Source of the DNA: a virus
Reading direction: 5' to 3' (one strand)
IMG/VR virus record: IMGVR_UViG_3300009514_001427
Length of the DNA: 28,737 bases
Part shown: one piece after another, positions 5,248 through 25,771 of the stretch
How positions within the stretch are numbered: position 1 is the stretch's first letter
Layout of the letters: the number at the start of each line of letters is the position of its first letter
Made by a program: the position numbers and the translations under genes
Notes under the pieces: generated by a model
What the model saw: only the letters and a program-made list of their open reading frames with translations
Told to the model about the DNA's origin: nothing
Database searches by the model: none

Positions 5248-5793
5248 ATGACAGATAACACACCCAAACCGAGAGTCGTCATCATCAAGGCTCGCGTACC
5301 TGATTTTTACGAGGGCGCGGATGTCGCGGCAATCGAAGTCACCGAGGATTTGATCCTCATGCTGGACAAGCGTATTGCTCAGACGAAGCGGATGTTTGAG
5401 CAGGATTTCTACGGTACTCGTTGGTGGAGCTACGCCCCGTATTTCGTCCGCTCTGCTGGTCCTGAGACATTTGGCATTCAGATGAGCGAGGAGGACTTCG
5501 AGGCGGCTCTGGATGCAAATGGGTGGGTCGAGGTTCCGGAGGATAGTGATTACGACCCTGCGGAGGATGATTATGCTCCGATAGATACTCTGCTGTTGCA
5601 GATTGGGGCTGTCCTCACGGCGAATGATACCACGTTTGCTGGATGGCAGTGGACTGGTTATGACAAGTACATCGGGGATAGCGCTCGCGTCACGACCTAT
5701 GAGATGGCAGAAGCCACCGTTGACGAGTGGGCTGAGTTGATTGGCTGCACTGAGAAGCTGCGACAGGTACGCAGGCTAAGGGGAGTGAGATGA
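5248..5793 (+). CDS. hypothetical protein, 181 aa, leaderless start
   Basis: ATG 5248 sits 7 nt after the -10 with no SD. It is in frame within ORF 5230..5793. Confidence 0.6.
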   Translation: MTDNTPKPRVVIIKARVPDFYEGADVAAIEVTEDLILMLDKRIAQTKRMFEQDFYGTRWWSYAPYFVRSAGPETFGIQMSEEDFEAALDANGWVEVPEDSDYDPAEDDYAPIDTLLLQIGAVLTANDTTFAGWQWTGYDKYIGDSARVTTYEMAEATVDEWAELIGCTEKLRQVRRLRGVR

Positions 5794-5990
5794 AGGTCAC
5801 AGTAGAGATAGCCGAGATCCATAAATCTATCCGCGAAATTGAAGTTCCGGATGGAGCGACGGATGCAGAGATACGCGCCCTGGCTGAGAAGGACGCAGGT
5901 CAGGCGAATGAGCTTAACTTGGAGTACAGTGACACTCTGCCTGCCGAGCAATGGACGATCCGCAAAGAAAACGGGGATCATATCGCTTGA
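5790..5990 (+). CDS. hypothetical protein, 66 aa
   Basis: ATGA overlap; GGGGAGTGAG RBS. The stop TGA lies inside the next -35 (gcTTGAca). Confidence 0.55.
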   Translation: MKVTVEIAEIHKSIREIEVPDGATDAEIRALAEKDAGQANELNLEYSDTLPAEQWTIRKENGDHIA

Positions 5991-6014
5991 CATTTATTCG
6001 CCATGTGGTATACT
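5987..6014 (+). promoter_or_regulatory. sigma70 promoter P4
   Basis: TTGACA 5987-5992, TATACT 6009-6014. Confidence 0.7.
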
Positions 6015-6034
6015 TACACTGAAAGGAGGCACTG

Positions 6035-10836: not shown

Positions 10837-11853
10837 ATGATGGTAGCAGCAGTCAGTACACGACATAATGCCTTGGACAGCTTTGGGTCAACTGTCCGCA
10901 ACAAGAAAGACCCGTATGAAGCCATGAGGAAGGCTAAGGGGCTGTTTGGACTCAAGAAGATGTCCCTTGCTGAATTCTCTGGTACGCCTGCCAACCCCGA
11001 CTTACACGTCGTGGTCCGTACCGATACGGGTGAGGCTATCGGTCAAGTCGGCAACAACTACGAGGTTTTCCCGAACGAGTCATTCTTCGGACCAACAGCA
11101 GAAGCGCTGGTTGAAGCGGGAGCCGAGATCACTAAGTTCCAAATGCTGGATCGTGGGACGCGGTCTTTCATGCGTCTTGCCTGGCCAGACGATGCCAACC
11201 TGCGCATCGGCAAGCCCAAAGTCGGCGACATTGTGGGTCGTCGCGCAACACTCTCCACATCACATGACGGCAAGTACGCAGGCAAGTTCACGCTCATGAT
11301 GCTTCGCCTTGCCTGTGAGAATGGGATGACCGTCCCAGTCGGCAGCTTCGACATGAATATGTTTCATACCGTGGGCGGCAAGCAGCAGCTTGTTGAGTTG
11401 AGCAACATGATCCCCACCGTTGAGACATACGTCCGTCAGTTTCAGGTTGCCGCAGACATGATGGCGGAAGTCCCTGTGAAGGCTGGCAGTGACTTGGCGA
11501 TGAAAATCATCGGCAAGGTTGCTGACCCCAAGGGTGGAGCCAAGGATACTTCGGGTGGAACCCCGAATCTCGCCAAGTCTCGCGTCATGCGCATTGCTGA
11601 GCTTTTCGAGGGAGAGCAACCGCAGGCAGACAATGTGGCGATCAAGGATACTGGCTGGGGTCTTTATAATGCTTGCGTGGACTTTTTCACGCATGACAAG
11701 GGGACTCGTGGACAGAACGAATCGGAGCGGTTGGAGCAGCGTTTTAAGAGCTTGCTTCCGGGTGGACCTGCCCAGCGAGAGATCGTACGGGCATGGGGCG
11801 TCGTGACAGATGGATTGGGGGTCAGTAACGCAATTGCCGCAGCAGTAAACTAA
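10837..11853 (+). CDS. hypothetical protein ~338 aa; resembles the DUF932/TIGR03299 phage/plasmid-related family (from memory; motif STSHDGKYAG)
   Basis: AGGAG at 10828-10832 with tandem ATGs at 10837 and 10840. The track ORF begins upstream inside the promoter. Confidence 0.7.
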   Translation: MMVAAVSTRHNALDSFGSTVRNKKDPYEAMRKAKGLFGLKKMSLAEFSGTPANPDLHVVVRTDTGEAIGQVGNNYEVFPNESFFGPTAEALVEAGAEITKFQMLDRGTRSFMRLAWPDDANLRIGKPKVGDIVGRRATLSTSHDGKYAGKFTLMMLRLACENGMTVPVGSFDMNMFHTVGGKQQLVELSNMIPTVETYVRQFQVAADMMAEVPVKAGSDLAMKIIGKVADPKGGAKDTSGGTPNLAKSRVMRIAELFEGEQPQADNVAIKDTGWGLYNACVDFFTHDKGTRGQNESERLEQRFKSLLPGGPAQREIVRAWGVVTDGLGVSNAIAAAVN

Positions 11854-11965: not shown

Positions 11966-11993
11966 TTGACATTTATTGCTCATGTGGTATACT
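11966..11993 (+). promoter_or_regulatory. sigma70 promoter P11, leaderless
   Basis: TTGACA 11966-11971, TATACT 11988-11993, ATG at 12000 (+7). Confidence 0.7.
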
Positions 11994-12829: not shown

Positions 12830-12857
12830 TTGACATTTCCGCTCTATGAGGTATACT
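12830..12857 (+). promoter_or_regulatory. sigma70 promoter P13, leaderless
   Basis: TTGACA 12830-12835, TATACT 12852-12857, ATG 12864 (+7). Confidence 0.7.
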
Positions 12858-12863
12858 AAAACT

Positions 12864-13088
12864 ATGGGACTAACAGTTGACAAGAAAGACTCGCCTCAAG
12901 CTGAGCGAATCATTAACGCGGGCAAAGAAATAACCAAACTGGTCCGCGAAACGGTCTATGCTGACCGACATTCAAGAAACTGTGCTACCGGGGCGCATCC
13001 CAATCGCTGGACGGATGCAGCGAGGAAACGGGATGACGCCGTGAAGTTTTTGAAGGAGCGACTGCAACAAATAGCAGAAGAAATCTGA
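12864..13088 (+). CDS. hypothetical protein, 74 aa
   Basis: Leaderless ATG in frame in ORF 12846..13088. Confidence 0.55.
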   Translation: MGLTVDKKDSPQAERIINAGKEITKLVRETVYADRHSRNCATGAHPNRWTDAARKRDDAVKFLKERLQQIAEEI

Positions 13089-13163: not shown

Positions 13164-13625
13164 ATGCCACAAATCAGACGAGATGAAATGGTCGTGGGAA
13201 TGCAGGCGGTTAAAACCGTCCAGTCCGCAACTTGGAGACGCCGTGGCGATAAGGTCGTCAACCGTTGCGTCAACTGTGAGTCTGAGACAGCCACCCATGA
13301 GGGCGAGCGATTCTGCAACCACTGCAACTGCTTTGTCCCAACGTACAAGAGTACGGAAGCTGCCGAGGGCGATCTTGTCACGATGCAGTTTATTCCCCGT
13401 ATCAATCCCAACGGGACCAAAAACTGGACCCCCGCTGGCGGTGAATGCTTCGGCGTAGCAACCAGAGCAGAGGCAGACGCGATCAAGCGTAAGCATGGTC
13501 TGGTTGGCGTCCTCAAGATGTCCGAGACTGCCACTGGCGACATGCGGGCTTTGCCACGAGTTATCCCGGTGGATGATGTGGTGACATGGAAAGCCGAGGG
13601 AGTAGAATACGAAGTAGTCGATTGA
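13164..13625 (+). CDS. zinc-ribbon protein (CVNCESETATHEGERFCNHCNC), 153 aa; paralog of the gene at 22006..22506
   Basis: AAGGGAG at 13151-13157. The two paralogs share MQAVKTVQS.TWRRR.DK.V.RCV.CE.ETATH.G.RFCN.C, MQFIPKINP.GTKNWTPAGG and a …EGVEY.VVD C-terminus. Confidence 0.7.
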   Translation: MPQIRRDEMVVGMQAVKTVQSATWRRRGDKVVNRCVNCESETATHEGERFCNHCNCFVPTYKSTEAAEGDLVTMQFIPRINPNGTKNWTPAGGECFGVATRAEADAIKRKHGLVGVLKMSETATGDMRALPRVIPVDDVVTWKAEGVEYEVVD

Positions 13626-13716
13626 AACTATGGGAGCGTAGGAGAAGCAGGGTAGGCGTACGCAACGCCCTGTGGCGACCGATATGTGATATACGGCACT
13701 GTTGGCAGGACGCTGC

Positions 13717-13728
13717 CAGAAATAAGCA
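13717..13728 (+). repeat. CAGAAATAAGCA motif variant, copy 3
   Basis: 10/12 match. Confidence 0.45.
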
Positions 13729-13931
13729 GTGCAATGTGGGGTTGGCACCCACCGCTCCCAGCCAGAACGCGTCAGAGTTGGCACGGTTCTAGAACGTGTA
13801 ACCGAAGGCATTCGGTGATGGGCATTGCGTAGGATAGGTGGGAGGCGCTGATACCTGCATTCCGGTGTAGATGAGCCATCCTTGAAATACCACCCTTTGC
13901 CCGGCAACTCTTATTTTTGTTCATTTTCTTC

Positions 13932-13959
13932 TTGACATTTCTCCTGGCCGTGGTATACT
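13932..13959 (+). promoter_or_regulatory. sigma70 promoter P15 (class II: gttcattttcttcTTGACATTTCTCCTGGCCGTGGTATACT)
   Basis: TTGACA 13932-13937, TATACT 13954-13959. Confidence 0.7.
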
Positions 13960-13977
13960 ATAGGCAGAAGGGAGACA

Positions 13978-14280
13978 ATGATGAGCCACAAAGTTACATG
14001 CGAAGATTGCGGACAAGAGGTTAGCCACGCCAGTTGTCGCACTGTTGGAGCGACGAAGAAATGGCTCTGTGGCGTCTGTGATGAATCATGCGAGCCTTGT
14101 CGTGGCTGCGACTCACACGATGTGGTATACTCCGATCATGGCGTCGATCTTTGCCAGTCCTGCAAGGATAACGCAACGCCAGAGCAAAAAGCGGACTTGT
14201 ACGAGCGTGACTATATGGACGCGCTGGAAAGTGGGCATCCAATGGCAGACCGCATGCCCATGCCTTCTAACTGGAGATAA
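13978..14280 (+). CDS. Cys-rich, probably zinc-binding, protein, 100 aa (many CxxC)
   Basis: AGGGAG at 13968-13973 with tandem ATGs at 13978 and 13981. Confidence 0.6.
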   Translation: MMSHKVTCEDCGQEVSHASCRTVGATKKWLCGVCDESCEPCRGCDSHDVVYSDHGVDLCQSCKDNATPEQKADLYERDYMDALESGHPMADRMPMPSNWR

Positions 14281-14284
14281 CAAA

Positions 14285-14464
14285 ATGCTAGAACGAGTTG
14301 CCAACCTGTTAAGCGGAGTTACACTAGAAGAAGACCCTGAAGGTCTGCTATTGCTCAACCTTGTTGTTCAGATGCAAGAGCATCCAGAAATCGACTGGAC
14401 CATCGACAAAATCAACACCGTCGTTACTGAGTTTCAAGGGTCGCTTGACGAGATGGAGGAGTAA
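14285..14464 (+). CDS. hypothetical protein, 59 aa
   Basis: GGAG at 14273-14276 precedes ATG 14285, in frame in ORF 14045..14464. Confidence 0.45.
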   Translation: MLERVANLLSGVTLEEDPEGLLLLNLVVQMQEHPEIDWTIDKINTVVTEFQGSLDEMEE

Positions 14465-14670
14465 TGTTTCCTGTCAACGGCAAGTGGTTTCTTGAGTCTA
14501 CCCATGAACCCAACAGGGAGATATTCCTAGTCAACCAAGGCGCTACCTGGCGTACTTTCACCCAGTATGGAGATGCTGAAGCGTTCGCTAAAAGGATGGA
14601 TCAGACGCTCAATGACGTCACTATCTTGACAGTGAAACCCGTCCTGCATTTACCGCAAAAAAGCACTTGA
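14464..14670 (+). CDS. hypothetical protein, 68 aa
   Basis: taATG coupling with GGAGG upstream. Confidence 0.5.
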   Translation: MFPVNGKWFLESTHEPNREIFLVNQGATWRTFTQYGDAEAFAKRMDQTLNDVTILTVKPVLHLPQKST

Positions 14671-14694
14671 CATTTCTCCTGGCCGTGGTATACT
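14667..14694 (+). promoter_or_regulatory. sigma70 promoter P16 (class II)
   Basis: TTGACA 14667-14672, TATACT 14689-14694. Confidence 0.7.
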
Positions 14695-14715
14695 GTAGGT
14701 AGAAAGGACGAAACG

Positions 14716-14880
14716 ATGATCAAAGACGTATCCACTCACAATGTCCTCATTCTCTATGTTTGCCCTGACTGTGGCAACGACGCGGACCAGTGGCTCTGCG
14801 ACATTGTCCACAATGGGACGCTGACTTGCGAATGTGGCGTGGACATGGAACTTAAACCTGATTGCCAAGTAAGGGAGTAG
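14716..14880 (+). CDS. small zinc-ribbon protein, 54 aa (CPDCG…CECG)
   Basis: AAAGGA at 14703-14708 precedes ATG 14716, with stop TAG at 14878-14880. It falls below the track's length cutoff. Confidence 0.45.
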   Translation: MIKDVSTHNVLILYVCPDCGNDADQWLCDIVHNGTLTCECGVDMELKPDCQVRE

Positions 14881-14882
14881 TT

Positions 14883-15149
14883 ATGCCTTGCATGTGCGGA
14901 GATACTTACTGTTACTCATGTGGTCCAGCCCAAGGAAACCACCGCTGCGAAATCTGCGGGAAATGGGATGAGGACGGCGGCTGCACGACACCTGACGAAT
15001 GTACTGCCAAGGCTAACGAAATGTATGCCGAGATGCAGGCAGAGCAACAGCGCTTCGATGAGGAAGCAGATGAACATGGGGAATTAGTCGGCAAAGCCCA
15101 CCCGGCTCAAACTCAAGAGATGTGGGAAGAAATAGGCAGAGGTTCATAA
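14883..15149 (+). CDS. Cys-rich protein, 88 aa (CMCGDTYCYSCG…CEICG)
   Basis: AAGGGAG precedes ATG 14883, in frame in ORF 14862..15149. Confidence 0.55.
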   Translation: MPCMCGDTYCYSCGPAQGNHRCEICGKWDEDGGCTTPDECTAKANEMYAEMQAEQQRFDEEADEHGELVGKAHPAQTQEMWEEIGRGS

Positions 15150-15156
15150 AAAGGAC

Positions 15157-15185
15157 TTGACATTTCCCCCGACGTATGGTATAAT
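15157..15185 (+). promoter_or_regulatory. sigma70 promoter P17, perfect consensus TTGACA-17-TGgTATAAT, leaderless
   Basis: TTGACA 15157-15162, TATAAT 15180-15185, ATG 15192 (+7). Confidence 0.7.
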
Positions 15186-15191
15186 AGAACC

Positions 15192-15347
15192 ATGAAGCAG
15201 GATAAGAGACAACTCATCGGTCGCGACCCAACCAAGGGATTGCTGGCCTTCAAAACAGGTTCGCAGCTAAACCGCAAGGATCGACTGCGCAACCGCAACT
15301 CCAAGGTCGCTCGCGCCACCCTTCGACGCCAGCTTAATGGCGACTGA
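15192..15347 (+). CDS. small basic protein, 51 aa (MKQDKRQLIGRDPTKGLLAFKTGSQLNRKDRLRNRNSKVARATLRRQLNGD)
   Basis: Leaderless ATG. It falls below the track's length cutoff. Confidence 0.4.
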   Translation: MKQDKRQLIGRDPTKGLLAFKTGSQLNRKDRLRNRNSKVARATLRRQLNGD

Positions 15348-15367
15348 TTTTTTCGGACCTCCCAGAT

Positions 15368-22005: not shown

Positions 22006-22506
22006 ATGCCAAACATCAGCCGACAAGACTTTATCGCAGGGACACAAGCGGTTAGGACGATTCAGTCGATAACGTGGCGTAGACGATCCGACAAGATTGT
22101 CAAGCGTTGCGTACAATGCGAAGCCGAAACCGCTACGCATCGGGGACAACGATTCTGCAACGCTTGTGACGAATTCGTCGCAACGTATGACGCCAAAGAA
22201 GCCGAAGCGGGCGACGTAGTACGGATGCAATTCATCCCGAAAATCAACCCCGAAGGCACGAAAAATTGGACGCCCGCAGGTGGCTTTATTTTCAACGCTC
22301 CGACCCGCGAAGCCGCCGAAGCTATCAAACGTCGCAAGGGCTTGATTCAATGCCTGAAAATGGGCGAGCAAATGCCCACAAACGACGCGGACGAGATTAG
22401 GGCAATGATCGACGCTGGCGACCTGAAAGCCTTACCGCGTTGTTTCGGAGCGTATGACGTAGAAACATGGACCGCCGAAGGCGAAACGTATACCGTCGTG
22501 GATTAG
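22006..22506 (+). CDS. zinc-ribbon protein, 166 aa; paralog of the gene at 13164..13625
   Basis: AAAGGGAGC RBS. CVQCEAETATHRGQRFCNACDEF. Confidence 0.7.
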   Translation: MPNISRQDFIAGTQAVRTIQSITWRRRSDKIVKRCVQCEAETATHRGQRFCNACDEFVATYDAKEAEAGDVVRMQFIPKINPEGTKNWTPAGGFIFNAPTREAAEAIKRRKGLIQCLKMGEQMPTNDADEIRAMIDAGDLKALPRCFGAYDVETWTAEGETYTVVD

Positions 22507-22733: not shown

Positions 22734-23672
22734 ATGACAAAGCAACGCAAAACAAAAGGCGACGTTTACCAGTGGATCACCGAACGAATGATCGCGGCAT
22801 TGGAAGCGGGAACGGTCCCGTGGCGGCGTCCGTGGTTGCTGATGAACGCCCCGGCGAATCTCATATCGGGCAAAACGTATCGCGGCGTCAATCTGTTTTC
22901 GCTCGCTATCGCTGGCGAAAAATACACTAGCCGATGGTGGCTGACTGCCAAGCAAGCCCGCGACCGTGGCGGTCACGTCCGCAAGGGCGAACGGTCGTCG
23001 ATGGTGGTTCGTCCGCTAGTCGGTGAGAAAACGAAAAACGGTCAGCCCGTACTCGACGCCAACGGCAAGCCACAAAAATACTTCGGTATGCGATACTCGA
23101 ATGTTTTCAACGTCGAGCAATGCGAGGGAATCGAGTATCCCAAGCCCGAAACCGGCAAGCCCGTCGATACGCTGGAAGTCTGCGAAAACATCATCGGCAA
23201 TTGGACCGATTGCCCGCCAATTGGTTACGGTGGCGACCGGGCGTATTATTCGCAAAGCGACGACCGTATCCAAATGCCAATGCGTGACACTTTCGAGGGA
23301 TCGGAACGATTCTACTCGGTCCTATTCCACGAATGTATTCACGCGACCGGACATAAGTCTCGGCTCAATCGTGACCTAACTGGACACTTCGGAACGTCGG
23401 ACTATGCCCGCGAGGAACTCGTTGCCGAAATGGGCGCAGCTTTCCTATGCGGCGTGGCGGGAATCGAATGCAAGACGGTCGATAACTCGGCAGCGTATAT
23501 CGCTAACTGGTTGCAGCGATTAAAAAACGATCATAAGCTAGTCGTCACTGCCGCCAAGCAAGCGCAAGCGGCGGCGGAGAGTATCCAAGGCATCGAAGCT
23601 CCGAAGTATGACAGCGAACCGCAAGATGGAAACGAGAGTGCCAACGCGATGGCACAAACCGTAGCGGCGTAA
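22734..23672 (+). CDS. ardC: ArdC-like antirestriction protein (N-terminal ssDNA-binding DUF1738-like domain plus C-terminal zincin metalloprotease, HExxH = FHECIHATGH)
   Basis: N-terminal …VPWRRPW…GKTYRGVNLFSL… and C-terminal HECIHATGH…ELVAEMGAAFLC are typical of ArdC/TraC1-N proteins as recalled from memory. Confidence 0.8.
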   Translation: MTKQRKTKGDVYQWITERMIAALEAGTVPWRRPWLLMNAPANLISGKTYRGVNLFSLAIAGEKYTSRWWLTAKQARDRGGHVRKGERSSMVVRPLVGEKTKNGQPVLDANGKPQKYFGMRYSNVFNVEQCEGIEYPKPETGKPVDTLEVCENIIGNWTDCPPIGYGGDRAYYSQSDDRIQMPMRDTFEGSERFYSVLFHECIHATGHKSRLNRDLTGHFGTSDYAREELVAEMGAAFLCGVAGIECKTVDNSAAYIANWLQRLKNDHKLVVTAAKQAQAAAESIQGIEAPKYDSEPQDGNESANAMAQTVAA

Positions 23673-23982
23673 GACTCACCACCGAGGCGGGCGGGTGCCA
23701 GACCAGTGGCACCCCGCTCGCCGCATACCTTAGACAGTGCCACGAGCATGGCACGCAAAGCGCGGAATTGAATAAGAACAAAAACCAAACAAAAAGTGTT
23801 CAAAATTTTTTGCAAATGACATACATTCTCCCACCCCTTTTGAACTTTCGGTTCCATATTTGCTCGCCGGGGGGTGTCCCCATCTGAAGCAAGCTAGCTG
23901 TGTGCATAAGGGGTATGGGTATGTCCTCCGGTGCAAACGCGGGTCCCTTTTTGCGTAGCCGAGGGTGCCCTGGCTGATGGTA

Positions 23983-24023
23983 CCAAAAAATAGGAGCCGC
24001 TCCATTGGTCAGAGACGGCTCCT
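23983..24023 (-). terminator. rho-independent terminator on the minus strand
   Basis: On the + strand the sequence reads ccAAAAAAT-aggagccg-N16-cggctcct. On the - strand the 8-bp stem is followed by ATTTTTTGG. Confidence 0.5.
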
Positions 24024-24156
24024 GGTGATGCTGCCACTCGGGCAGATGGGCTAGTGGTGTAGTAGGCAGTATGACTGGGGCTGGTGGTGATGTCAATAAA
24101 AAAGCGCGGATAAAATATGGCTGTTTTTGTGAAGTTTTCGCGGAAAATTGGCGTCC

Positions 24157-24184
24157 TTGACATTTCTGTGAGATGTGGTAGAAT
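24157..24184 (+). promoter_or_regulatory. sigma70 promoter P32 (TTGACATTTCTGTGAGATGTGGTAGAAT), leaderless
   Basis: TTGACA 24157-24162, TAGAAT 24179-24184, ATG 24191 (+7). Confidence 0.55.
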
Positions 24185-24190
24185 TTTGGC

Positions 24191-24814
24191 ATGATAGATC
24201 ACTCGATAGATGAATTGCGTGGCCACGCGGATTATCATGGCGTGAGGAAAATTGCCGATCTGATGTTGGATGATCCTCGCTTTATCGTATGGAGTGGTTC
24301 ATCTCATGAGGGTCAGCATCATCACGGTACTGGGGGATTGGTCACTCATGTCTCTGAAGTTGTACATATGTGCATGCTCTTGAAAAACGAATGCTATCCA
24401 GATCTGGATGAGAAGGTATTGTTCTTATCAGCTCTGTTGCATGACTGGGGCAAGCTTTGGGATTACGAGCCTTGGGATTACGGTTCCACAGCAAAACCAT
24501 TGAAGGCATGCGTGATAACTGACCCGAAACTAATCGATCAGCATACCAAATGGCGCGGGGCTCCTCACAAGCGGAACATTCATCATATCAGTCGATCTGC
24601 CATTGAGTGGAGCAAGGCGGTTGCTCTCACTGGGGAATGCAAAGACATTGAGGAGCAGGTCACTCATGCGATTCTGGCTCATCATGGTCAGAGGGCATGG
24701 GGATCACCAGTGGCTCCCAACAGTCGTATTGCATGGCTCTTGCATTGTTGCGACATTATAAGTGCTCGCATGGCAGATTGTGAAACGCTGGATTATCTCA
24801 AGTTCCGGAAGTAG
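24191..24814 (+). CDS. HD-domain metal-dependent phosphohydrolase, 207 aa
   Basis: The H…HHHG…H / LLHDWGK / ILAHHGQ motifs are consistent with the HD superfamily. Confidence 0.75.
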   Translation: MIDHSIDELRGHADYHGVRKIADLMLDDPRFIVWSGSSHEGQHHHGTGGLVTHVSEVVHMCMLLKNECYPDLDEKVLFLSALLHDWGKLWDYEPWDYGSTAKPLKACVITDPKLIDQHTKWRGAPHKRNIHHISRSAIEWSKAVALTGECKDIEEQVTHAILAHHGQRAWGSPVAPNSRIAWLLHCCDIISARMADCETLDYLKFRK

Positions 24815-25007: not shown

Positions 25008-25099
25008 ATCTGGGTCTCCTTTGAGGGGAAGTATACGACATGAGAGAGAAATGTCAAAAGGGGTGTTCTAAAAAATTTCGCGGGTAATAGAGGGCTGTT

Positions 25100-25771
25100 T
25101 TAAGCGTTTGAGGGGTGGTTTTGTCCTGTGTCAAAACGCTTTTGGGTGTGGCCGAGGATTCCTTCACGGGCATGGCAGAGGAATGAGAGTTTCTTACCAT
25201 TTTGGAGTCTTTGGATGATATTGAGTTTTTCTCGTTGGAAGTTCTTTTCCCACCAGTGGACGGATCGTCTTGTGGTGAGTAGGGAGAAGTCTTTGTAGGG
25301 GGTATTCTTGAGATACTTATCTTCTTCGGTTCCATCGCAATCGCTGACCAGAATCCAGACATAGCCTACCCCGACTCGCTTCAGTTCAGCGATTGCTTTT
25401 TGGGTATCTGGTTCTGGTATACGATCTAGCAGATGGGTACAGATCACGAGATCGAATTGGTCATCGGGGTATGGTAGTTCTTGAGCATTGGCTAGTTTGA
25501 GATCTACGTCTTTGATATCGACTTTGTTCAGGGCTTCTTGTGAGAAGTCTACGCCATGGCATTGGACTTGTGGTCTTGTATGTTTGACCCATTTGATAAG
25601 TTGTCCTGAGCCGCAACCGACATCGATCATGGAGTTAAAGGCGAGTGGTTGAATGACTTGTACGTACTCGAATGCTCTGAGTGGGCTATTGCCATAACTG
25701 GGGCATTGTGCATGTACATGGTCATAGAGTTGTTTCAGATCTGGTGGTGGTTGGTTTCTTTTGGTTCTCAT
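25100..25771 (-). CDS. class I SAM-dependent methyltransferase, 223 aa
   Basis: Motif I IDVGCGSGQL, HGVDFS and FDLVICTHLL. A TATAAT lies immediately upstream of its ATG on the minus strand. Confidence 0.8.
   Translation of the reverse strand: MRTKRNQPPPDLKQLYDHVHAQCPSYGNSPLRAFEYVQVIQPLAFNSMIDVGCGSGQLIKWVKHTRPQVQCHGVDFSQEALNKVDIKDVDLKLANAQELPYPDDQFDLVICTHLLDRIPEPDTQKAIAELKRVGVGYVWILVSDCDGTEEDKYLKNTPYKDFSLLTTRRSVHWWEKNFQREKLNIIQRLQNGKKLSFLCHAREGILGHTQKRFDTGQNHPSNA

Follow-up and report, generated by a model that had tools for sequence, protein, structure and literature searches.

What separates the last gene of a long co-directional gene array from the differently organized genes beside it? 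We addressed this question in a viral DNA record of 28,737 nt, IMG/VR IMGVR_UViG_3300009514_001427 (the whole stretch is called the window here), in which a 518-nt gap lies between ardC and a gene for an HD-domain protein. An identical ArdC protein (P0001) is recorded on a 153-kb metagenome contig, and the window represents 28.7 kb of such a contig. Every credible gene from 0.1 to 23.7 kb of the window is on the plus strand, and ardC closes this series of about 33 co-directional genes. An initial annotation had read the gap as a possible module junction or mosaic breakpoint, a regulatory hub for the HD gene, or an origin or attachment-like region. We propose, with a probability of about 0.5, that the gap is a transcriptional terminator or insulator combined with a recombination hot spot, and that it forms the conserved right-hand end of an array in which each gene has its own promoter. 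The features involved are of known kinds, and their combination is unusual; the parts of note are a family of palindromes and a sawtooth in strand skew.

The gap was compared with nine related contigs found via a protein database. The ArdC identity to the window was 86% for L001, 68% for L002 (with 21 kb of context), 67% for L003, L004 and L005, 63% for L104 and L105, and 57% for L267 (with 15 kb of context). L003 is collinear with positions 20.0-23.8 kb of the window at about 73% DNA identity, and L266 is a relative on the side of a methyltransferase gene to the right of the gap. No close relative was found in IMG/VR, the JGI metagenome set, GTDB genomes, or the phage or plasmid collections. 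By these searches, the element belongs to a rare, unannotated and uncharacterized family.

The gap and the end of ardC carry three exact 18-bp palindromes, GTGCCA-N6-TGGCAC, within 117 bp, and there is no further exact match in the 28.7 kb. By arithmetic, about 0.002 exact matches to this pattern of 12 specified bases are expected in the window. The palindromes are irregularly spaced (57 and 42 bp), and the first lies inside ardC. The initial annotation had described two hairpins with this stem; both are real, but they are located at the positions of palindromes 2 and 3 in Table 1 rather than at 23697-23716 and 23741-23758, and the third copy had been missed. The cluster is shared by six close lineages represented by eight contigs (the window, L001, L002, L003, L004/L005 and L104/L105). 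Each lineage has three to five sites across the ardC stop codon that fit GTG(C/A)CA-N5/6-TG(G/T)CAC at 11 or 12 of the 12 bases, except that only two are seen in L001 because this contig ends 17 nt past the stop. One to three of the sites per lineage fall within the coding tail of ardC, and L001-L005 and L104/L105 have in-gene sites equivalent to palindrome 1. There, the motif is translated as S-(D/A)-x-x-(V/M)-A and is kept in otherwise variable ArdC tails. The stem sequence is thus conserved and multiplied, even where an A·G mismatch results in the RNA stem, which argues for sequence-specific recognition. This suggests that the palindrome may be recognized by a dimeric DNA-binding factor of the element or the host, rather than acting as an RNA structure alone.

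The cluster was not found at any of the 160 more distant ardC loci fetched, and L267 has no palindromes. A search of IMG/VR for the palindrome-pair pattern returned 98 matches, about the chance expectation, and in the literature the motif matched only primer sequences. An unrelated viral contig, L047 (IMGVR_UViG_3300045988_095063), has four copies of GTGCCAC-N4-ATGGCAC with a 22-bp period at its end (positions 120-200); it was found through the pattern search itself and is hence not independent evidence. In L002, the ardC tail contains an exact 27-bp tandem duplication (gaaatgagagtgacaccagtatggcac, twice, at 10893-10946), which adds one palindrome and nine codons.

All three palindromes of the window can fold as hairpins. 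The stable one directly after the ardC stop is built around palindrome 2 (Table 1), and the two either side of it are weaker. Post-stop hairpins of -24 to -35 kcal/mol are present in every relative. In L003, a long hairpin (-35.2 kcal/mol) has the first post-stop site at its apex. In L002, the half-sites form the arms of a 17-bp stem that is followed by T8 and is called as a terminator; in L105, the stem they form has 11 bp and runs into a U-tract. Both are canonical terminators. The stable hairpin that L267 has in this place is unrelated. The terminator-like hairpin after ardC is, judged from these relatives, ancestral. Intrinsic terminators and terminator clusters that insulate operons are similar in having a GC-rich hairpin directly past the stop, with a U-tract in L002 and L105, and in the presence of a second, opposed terminator. 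They differ in that here the stem sequence is conserved and repeated, even in the coding region, and in that the copy in the window has no U-tract.

The opposed terminator is on the minus strand, where the initial annotation had placed it at 23983-24023, and both its stem and its U-run were confirmed. In L002, a different hairpin occupies this position and ends a minus-strand gene. A scan of the window and the gap with Rfam gave no family in the gap at the gathering threshold, and only chance-level matches (E 0.3-0.4) at the E-value threshold. No open reading frame (ORF) in the gap was kept in relatives in a six-frame comparison of the window with L002. Two candidate peptides were rejected. 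A minus-strand ORF of 16-17 aa that starts from the CAT of CCATATTTG was seen by eye in L002, L105 and L267, and its frame is broken in the window; the apparent conservation of a plus-strand gap peptide of 17-20 aa has only DNA similarity behind it.

The gap also coincides with a boundary in gene content. The GC content is 0.54 at 22-24 kb vs. 0.44-0.49 at 24-27.5 kb, and the GC content at third codon positions is 0.48-0.68 in 25 left-hand genes vs. 0.41-0.50 in eight right-hand genes. The left-hand genes are all on the plus strand; five right-hand genes are on the plus strand and three on the minus strand. These values bear out the compositional boundary that had been placed at about 23.7 kb. 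The boundary is also present in L002 and L003 and is weaker in L267. The right-hand genes change with every relative: an HD nuclease gene in the window, a minus-strand gene for a Cys-rich secreted protein in L002, and a gene for a His/Arg-rich lipoprotein in L267 and L266. Furthermore, all six short contigs with close ArdC homologues (L001, L003, L004, L005, L104 and L105) stop 17-240 nt past the ardC stop, and L105 ends exactly at the CCGGGGGG run of a conserved segment of the gap, block A. Contig ends in this position are what strain-level variability would produce in assemblies. Given that the right-hand gene content is freely replaced, the junction is taken as a recombination hot spot, and the earlier suggestion of a module junction or mosaic breakpoint holds.

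The middle of the gap provides a record of such a replacement. Window positions 23811-23990 align to L002 11033-11210 with runs of 30 or more identical bases. This segment consists of two blocks, A and B, that are kept among the window, L002, L105, L266 and L267. In L267, block A (5447-5547) lies upstream and block B (5948-6030) downstream of a gene (5656-5958) for a 100-aa His/Arg-rich lipoprotein. The window retains the end codons of the lost gene as CAT AAG GGG TA, compared with CAC AAG GGG TAG in L267. L266 has block B, then a promoter, and then a homologous lipoprotein gene (E = 2e-5 over the signal peptide and lipobox). The deletion end points differ: L002 retains the start-codon region, and the deletion in L004 is larger. 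As the alignment with L267 shows, 23811-23990 corresponds to the 5' and 3' flanks, now fused, of a gene for a small secreted lipoprotein; this gene is intact in L267 and has decayed here. The plus-strand fold of the blocks in the window is unremarkable (single-sequence, z = -0.6). Among four sequences, too few for a model, there is one candidate covarying pair, in a GGRGG/CCYCC hairpin.

The right end of the gap is organized around promoters. A family of near-identical sigma70 promoters of the extended -10 type, with the consensus TTGACATTT(A/C)TT..ATGTGGTATACT, has 34 copies in the window between 156 and 25057, and 33 of them are on the plus strand (for example 3275, 10163, 16990 and 21181); the last copy is at 25057 on the minus strand. 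Almost every array gene has one upstream, and the spacer is conserved as well. In L002, L003 and L267, the cassettes have an identity of 88-96% and are better conserved than coding DNA. The consensus had no match in the phage or plasmid collections searched. Many array ATGs lie 6-8 nt after the -10 box, which points to leaderless mRNAs, and ORF-finder starts of the 'MWYT..' kind are in reality the -10 box. The HD gene is served by a member of this family, and since the -10 box ends 7 nt before the ATG at 24191, the HD mRNA is probably leaderless as well.

Back-to-back with the HD promoter is a putative minus-strand promoter. Its upstream element AAAAAAGCGCGGATAAAATATGGCTGTTTT is a paralogue of that at the family promoter at 25057 on the minus strand, and the shared 33-nt element supports that the promoter is real. 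Together with the minus-strand terminator, this promoter may give rise to an RNA of about 75 nt. The two direct repeats CGCGGA(T/A)AAAT noted upstream of the HD promoter are present, as CGCGGATAAAAT (24105) and CGCGGAAAATT (24139), but they are 34 nt rather than about 37 nt apart and carry one mismatch each; a third copy, CGCGGAATTGAAT, lies at 23761. The control region of the HD gene is the last ~100 nt of the gap only, with the family promoter and the CGCGG motifs; palindromes and hairpins are to be assigned to the ardC side. The proposal of a regulatory hub for the HD gene is thus retained for that end and dropped for the remainder.

Table 1. Features of the ardC-HD junction, in window coordinates.
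Feature	Position	Strand	Description
ardC	22734-23672	+	last gene of the co-directional array; Pfam ArdcN and MPTase-PolyVal
Palindrome 1	23638-23655		GTGCCA-acgcga-TGGCAC; inside ardC; tail codons S-A-N-A-M-A
Post-ardC hairpin	23685-23722	+	-31.7 kcal/mol, z = -5.5; apex is palindrome 2; no U-tract
Palindrome 2	23695-23712		apex of the post-stop hairpin
Palindrome 3	23737-23754		GTGCCA-cgagca-TGGCAC; identical to two L003 sites
First CGCGG motif	23757-23773	+	AAAGCGCGGAATTGAAT; L003 has two tandem copies in the same place
A/T-rich tract	23761-23850		GC 0.34, 90 bp; A/T-rich tract in the same place in all relatives
Block A	23811-23898	+	GCAnnnGACATA, TTGAACTT, GG-N10-GC (GG 23850-51, GC 23862-63), GGGG-TGT-CCCC hairpin 23871-23881, then CCATCTGAAG..TAGCTGTGTG
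Block B	23899-23990	+	last codons of the lost ORF, then GGGTCCCTTTTTGCG, GAGGGTGCCC, ATGGTACC and A-run
Minus-strand intrinsic terminator	23985-24022	-	stem 23993-24022, U-run 23992-23985; -20.2 kcal/mol, z = -3.5
Predicted ~75-nt RNA	23985-24061	-	two hairpins and U-tail; minus-strand promoter into terminator
Putative minus-strand promoter	24068-24096	-	TTGACA-17-CATACT
33-nt element	24095-24127		AATAAAAAAGCGCGGATAAAATATGGCTGTTTT; the first direct repeat lies within it; paralogues at 25069-25100 and in L266
Second direct repeat	24139-24149	+	CGCGGAAAATT; 8 nt upstream of the -35 box
HD-gene promoter	24157-24184	+	TTGACATTTCTGTGAGATGTGGTAGAAT; member of the 34-copy family
HD-domain gene	24191-24814	+	first gene of the right-hand module; HD domain like YhaM 3'-5' exoribonuclease

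In the mechanism that we propose, the stable hairpin past the ardC stop, flanked by the two weaker ones, would terminate transcription and insulate the array, and the palindrome would be bound by a dimeric factor of the element or the host. The A/T-rich spacer that follows would lead into a decayed transcription unit, represented by blocks A and B as the flanks of the lipoprotein gene, which was deleted at end points that differ among the window, L002 and L004. From the right end, transcription leftward from the minus-strand promoter would run into the minus-strand terminator and yield the short RNA, and the rightward family promoter would produce the leaderless HD mRNA.

Several observations weigh against this reading. 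The main hairpin in the window has no U-tract, which leaves intrinsic termination at this point uncertain. No DNA-binding protein was identified for the palindrome, and about 45 small ORFs have no Pfam domain at all. L267 has block A without palindromes, so the two are separable. Nor does the reading account for the good conservation of blocks A and B once the intervening gene was lost. Finally, it leaves unexplained that the strand skew is reset at this point whatever the orientation of the right-hand genes.

The skew was evaluated as keto skew, G+T minus A+C. Its cumulative curve over the window has the global maximum at 11988 and the global minimum at 23837, at the right end of the A/T tract and inside block A, and the largest 4-kb step (+0.239) is at 23840. 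The turning point at 11988 is the gap after a DUF932 gene, and the AT skew jumps there too. Along the array, the plus-strand third-position keto skew per gene falls from +0.36 to -0.54, near-linearly over 23 kb (Spearman -0.85, p = 5e-8). To the right of the gap, it resets to +0.15 to +0.54, minus-strand genes included (+0.37, +0.46 and +0.15), indicating that the reset is independent of gene orientation; the left-hand and right-hand genes differ at p = 2e-4. Only transitions contribute to the signal: A/(A+G) increases together with C/(C+T), the purine fraction stays constant, and the same holds at four-fold sites. In L002, the left/right switch recurs (p = 1e-6, again with minus-strand genes counted) and there is no gradient, L003 has the same sign, and L267 has no switch. 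At 67 other ardC loci used as a control, the 95th percentile of the step was 0.088 vs. 0.235 here. Codon positions 1 and 2 and unannotated DNA have skew of the same sign but weak, so the signal is almost entirely one of third positions, and codon-level selection is a possible cause.

Given this skew, the junction might be a strand-displacement origin, oriT-like or of the rolling-circle type, of an uncharacterized element of about 150 kb. We consider this explanation, the main rival, possible but rather unlikely. After a nick in the gap, the minus strand would be peeled off leftwards; ardC would be the first gene to enter or to become exposed, and the transferred strand would serve as template for every array gene. 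The same strand would carry a deamination-type bias, with exposure greatest next to the junction; the palindromes and hairpins would be relaxosome or single-strand-initiation sites, the A/T tract a melting region, and the linear gradient the mutational footprint of graded single-strand exposure. The position of the minimum and of the step, the gradient with its reset in transitions only, the L002 switch, the sign in L003 and the size of the step relative to the control loci are all in its favor. So is the layout of 25 or more left-hand genes, all on the plus strand and ending in ardC, which is that of a co-oriented, anti-defense leading region. As in the leading region and oriT of conjugative plasmids (F, ColIb and R388), small establishment and anti-defense genes in one direction end at a non-coding, hairpin-rich region, the array is GC-richer than what follows, and ArdC is a classic leading-region protein. 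By published rules, the T-strand is the template of anti-defense genes in leading regions (PMC11541004) and the GC content of leading regions is higher (PMC13478746); the array agrees with both. However, no relaxase, coupling protein, type IV secretion system (T4SS) or Rep was found within 4.5 kb rightwards in the window or 10 kb in L002 and L267, although most of the genes there are ORFans; the relaxase and T4SS search covered 28.7 of the 153 kb plus 10 kb each of L002 and L267. Inverted repeats are present, but a nic consensus is unassignable without a relaxase family, and no known nic sequence was found. In addition, the 34 array promoters are near-identical, ordinary double-strand sigma70 promoters and not single-stranded DNA hairpin promoters of the Frpo type, the third-position character of the skew leaves room for codon-level selection, and L002 is without the gradient and L267 without the switch. 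Neither of the two leading-region papers (PMC11541004, PMC13478746) mentions a linear gradient of synonymous transition skew. Of the origin proposed by the initial annotation, a skew reset of origin polarity at 23837-23840 and an A/T tract beside palindromes were found, but no initiator, relaxase or nic site.

A bidirectional theta origin of the lambda-ori kind, in which the palindromes would be iterons located partly in a gene and followed by an A/T-rich unwinding element, is improbable. Three to five 18-bp palindromes do lie beside a 90-bp tract of 34% GC, and the polarity of the skew (C>G and A>T on the left, G>C and T>A on the right) is as expected. A lambda-type origin likewise has several ~18-bp imperfect palindromes partly in coding sequence and then an A/T-rich tract. 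Here, however, the spacing is irregular, the host gene is ardC and not an initiator gene, and the middle repeat caps a long hairpin that is a terminator in relatives. The distance to the opposite turning point is only 11.8 kb, the left arm has a gradient instead of a step, the fork would meet more than 25 heavily promoted genes head-on, no initiator gene or Rep domain is nearby, and L267 has no repeats. By eye, there was no convincing match to a DnaA box, with at most 6-7 of the 9 positions of TTATCCACA matched, within the CGCGG motifs, or to an integration host factor site. About as improbable is a role of the palindromes as a centromere-like partition site, or as an array of repressor operators with a target outside the window: clustering, sequence conservation and the turnover in number and spacing, including the exact 27-bp duplication with a site in L002, would suit such an array, but the sites are at the 3' end of a gene and not at a promoter, and no ParA/ParB or repressor gene was seen.

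Still less probable is a sigma54-dependent hub, in which the palindromes would act as enhancer (upstream activating sequence) sites for a -24/-12 promoter, either at 23707 or at the GG-N10-GC of block A. The TGGCAC-N5-TCGC that had suggested sigma54 is present at 23707-23721, but it consists of the right half of palindrome 2 and the hairpin stem. About 10 consensus matches per 28.7 kb are expected by chance, one C fewer in L003 shifts the -24/-12 spacing, and L002, L105 and L267 do not have the site. Sigma54 is rejected as the working explanation. For the block A site, cGGttccatatTTGCt (23850-23863), the arrangement is more suggestive, with the three palindromes 106-230 bp upstream, the A/T tract in between, and the GG and GC kept in the window, L002 and L105. 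Together with a short terminated transcript, this resembles the enhancer-dependent sigma54 promoters of GlmY/GlmZ-type small RNAs, which combine three activator sites, a bend and -24/-12 elements. The promoter match is nevertheless at chance level (8-9/12, with ~9.7 sites scoring at least 9 per shuffled 28.7-kb window); L267 has TTGG at -12 and no palindromes, and the -12 element is deleted in L004. No activator gene was found; a RuvB-like ATPase in the array scores 22 bits to Sigma54_activat vs. 73 to RuvB_N and 195 to the NCBIfam RuvB model. The idea of an attachment (integration) site can practically be set aside. Blocks A and B do hold long identical runs between divergent elements, but they flank a gene in L267 and are like untranslated regions, the window has no tRNA or tmRNA and no integrase domain, the phage and plasmid collections gave no match, and neither block was seen where an element joins a chromosome.

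Some neighboring genes were also recorded. The RuvB-like AAA+ ATPase is divergent and is encoded at the left end of the array (611-1690); its 195 bits compare with an NCBIfam cutoff of 282. The array contains a paralogous pair of Zn-ribbon-like genes (13164-13625 and 22006-22506) with similar N-termini, CxxC motifs and no Pfam family. A borderline Rfam match to bacterial large-subunit rRNA at 13816-13906 on the plus strand (model positions 2125-2216, 51.4 bits vs. a gathering score of 50) was gone when 13700-14000 was scanned alone. To the right of the HD gene, a class I S-adenosylmethionine-dependent methyltransferase gene (25100-25771, minus strand) is kept beside the junction in L002 and L266. 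Among 5.8 billion proteins, the methyltransferase has only five homologues at E<1e-30, and the sole organism-named one, from a Promethearchaeota metagenome-assembled genome (MAG), is the weakest of the five (48% identity). The nearest ArdC homologues in genomes are in Verrucomicrobiota and Planctomycetota MAGs. L267 carries a gene with a chlamydial-type histone-like Hc1 domain (12830-13045) and a large SNF2 helicase gene (14454-15348), which hint at a possible host in the Planctomycetes-Verrucomicrobia-Chlamydiae group.

Should the palindrome cluster be a recognition site that ends an array terminated by an anti-restriction gene, it would provide a handle on the factor that organizes the element. 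Even on a conservative reading, the codons of a protein tail double here as a motif for binding or structure, and the locus is a cassette slot in which genes are lost or replaced between fixed flanks. If it is true that the skew sawtooth reports single-strand exposure, transfer origins and leading regions would be locatable from the DNA sequence alone, and the position of oriT and the polarity of the leading region could be read even where transfer genes are unrecognizable.

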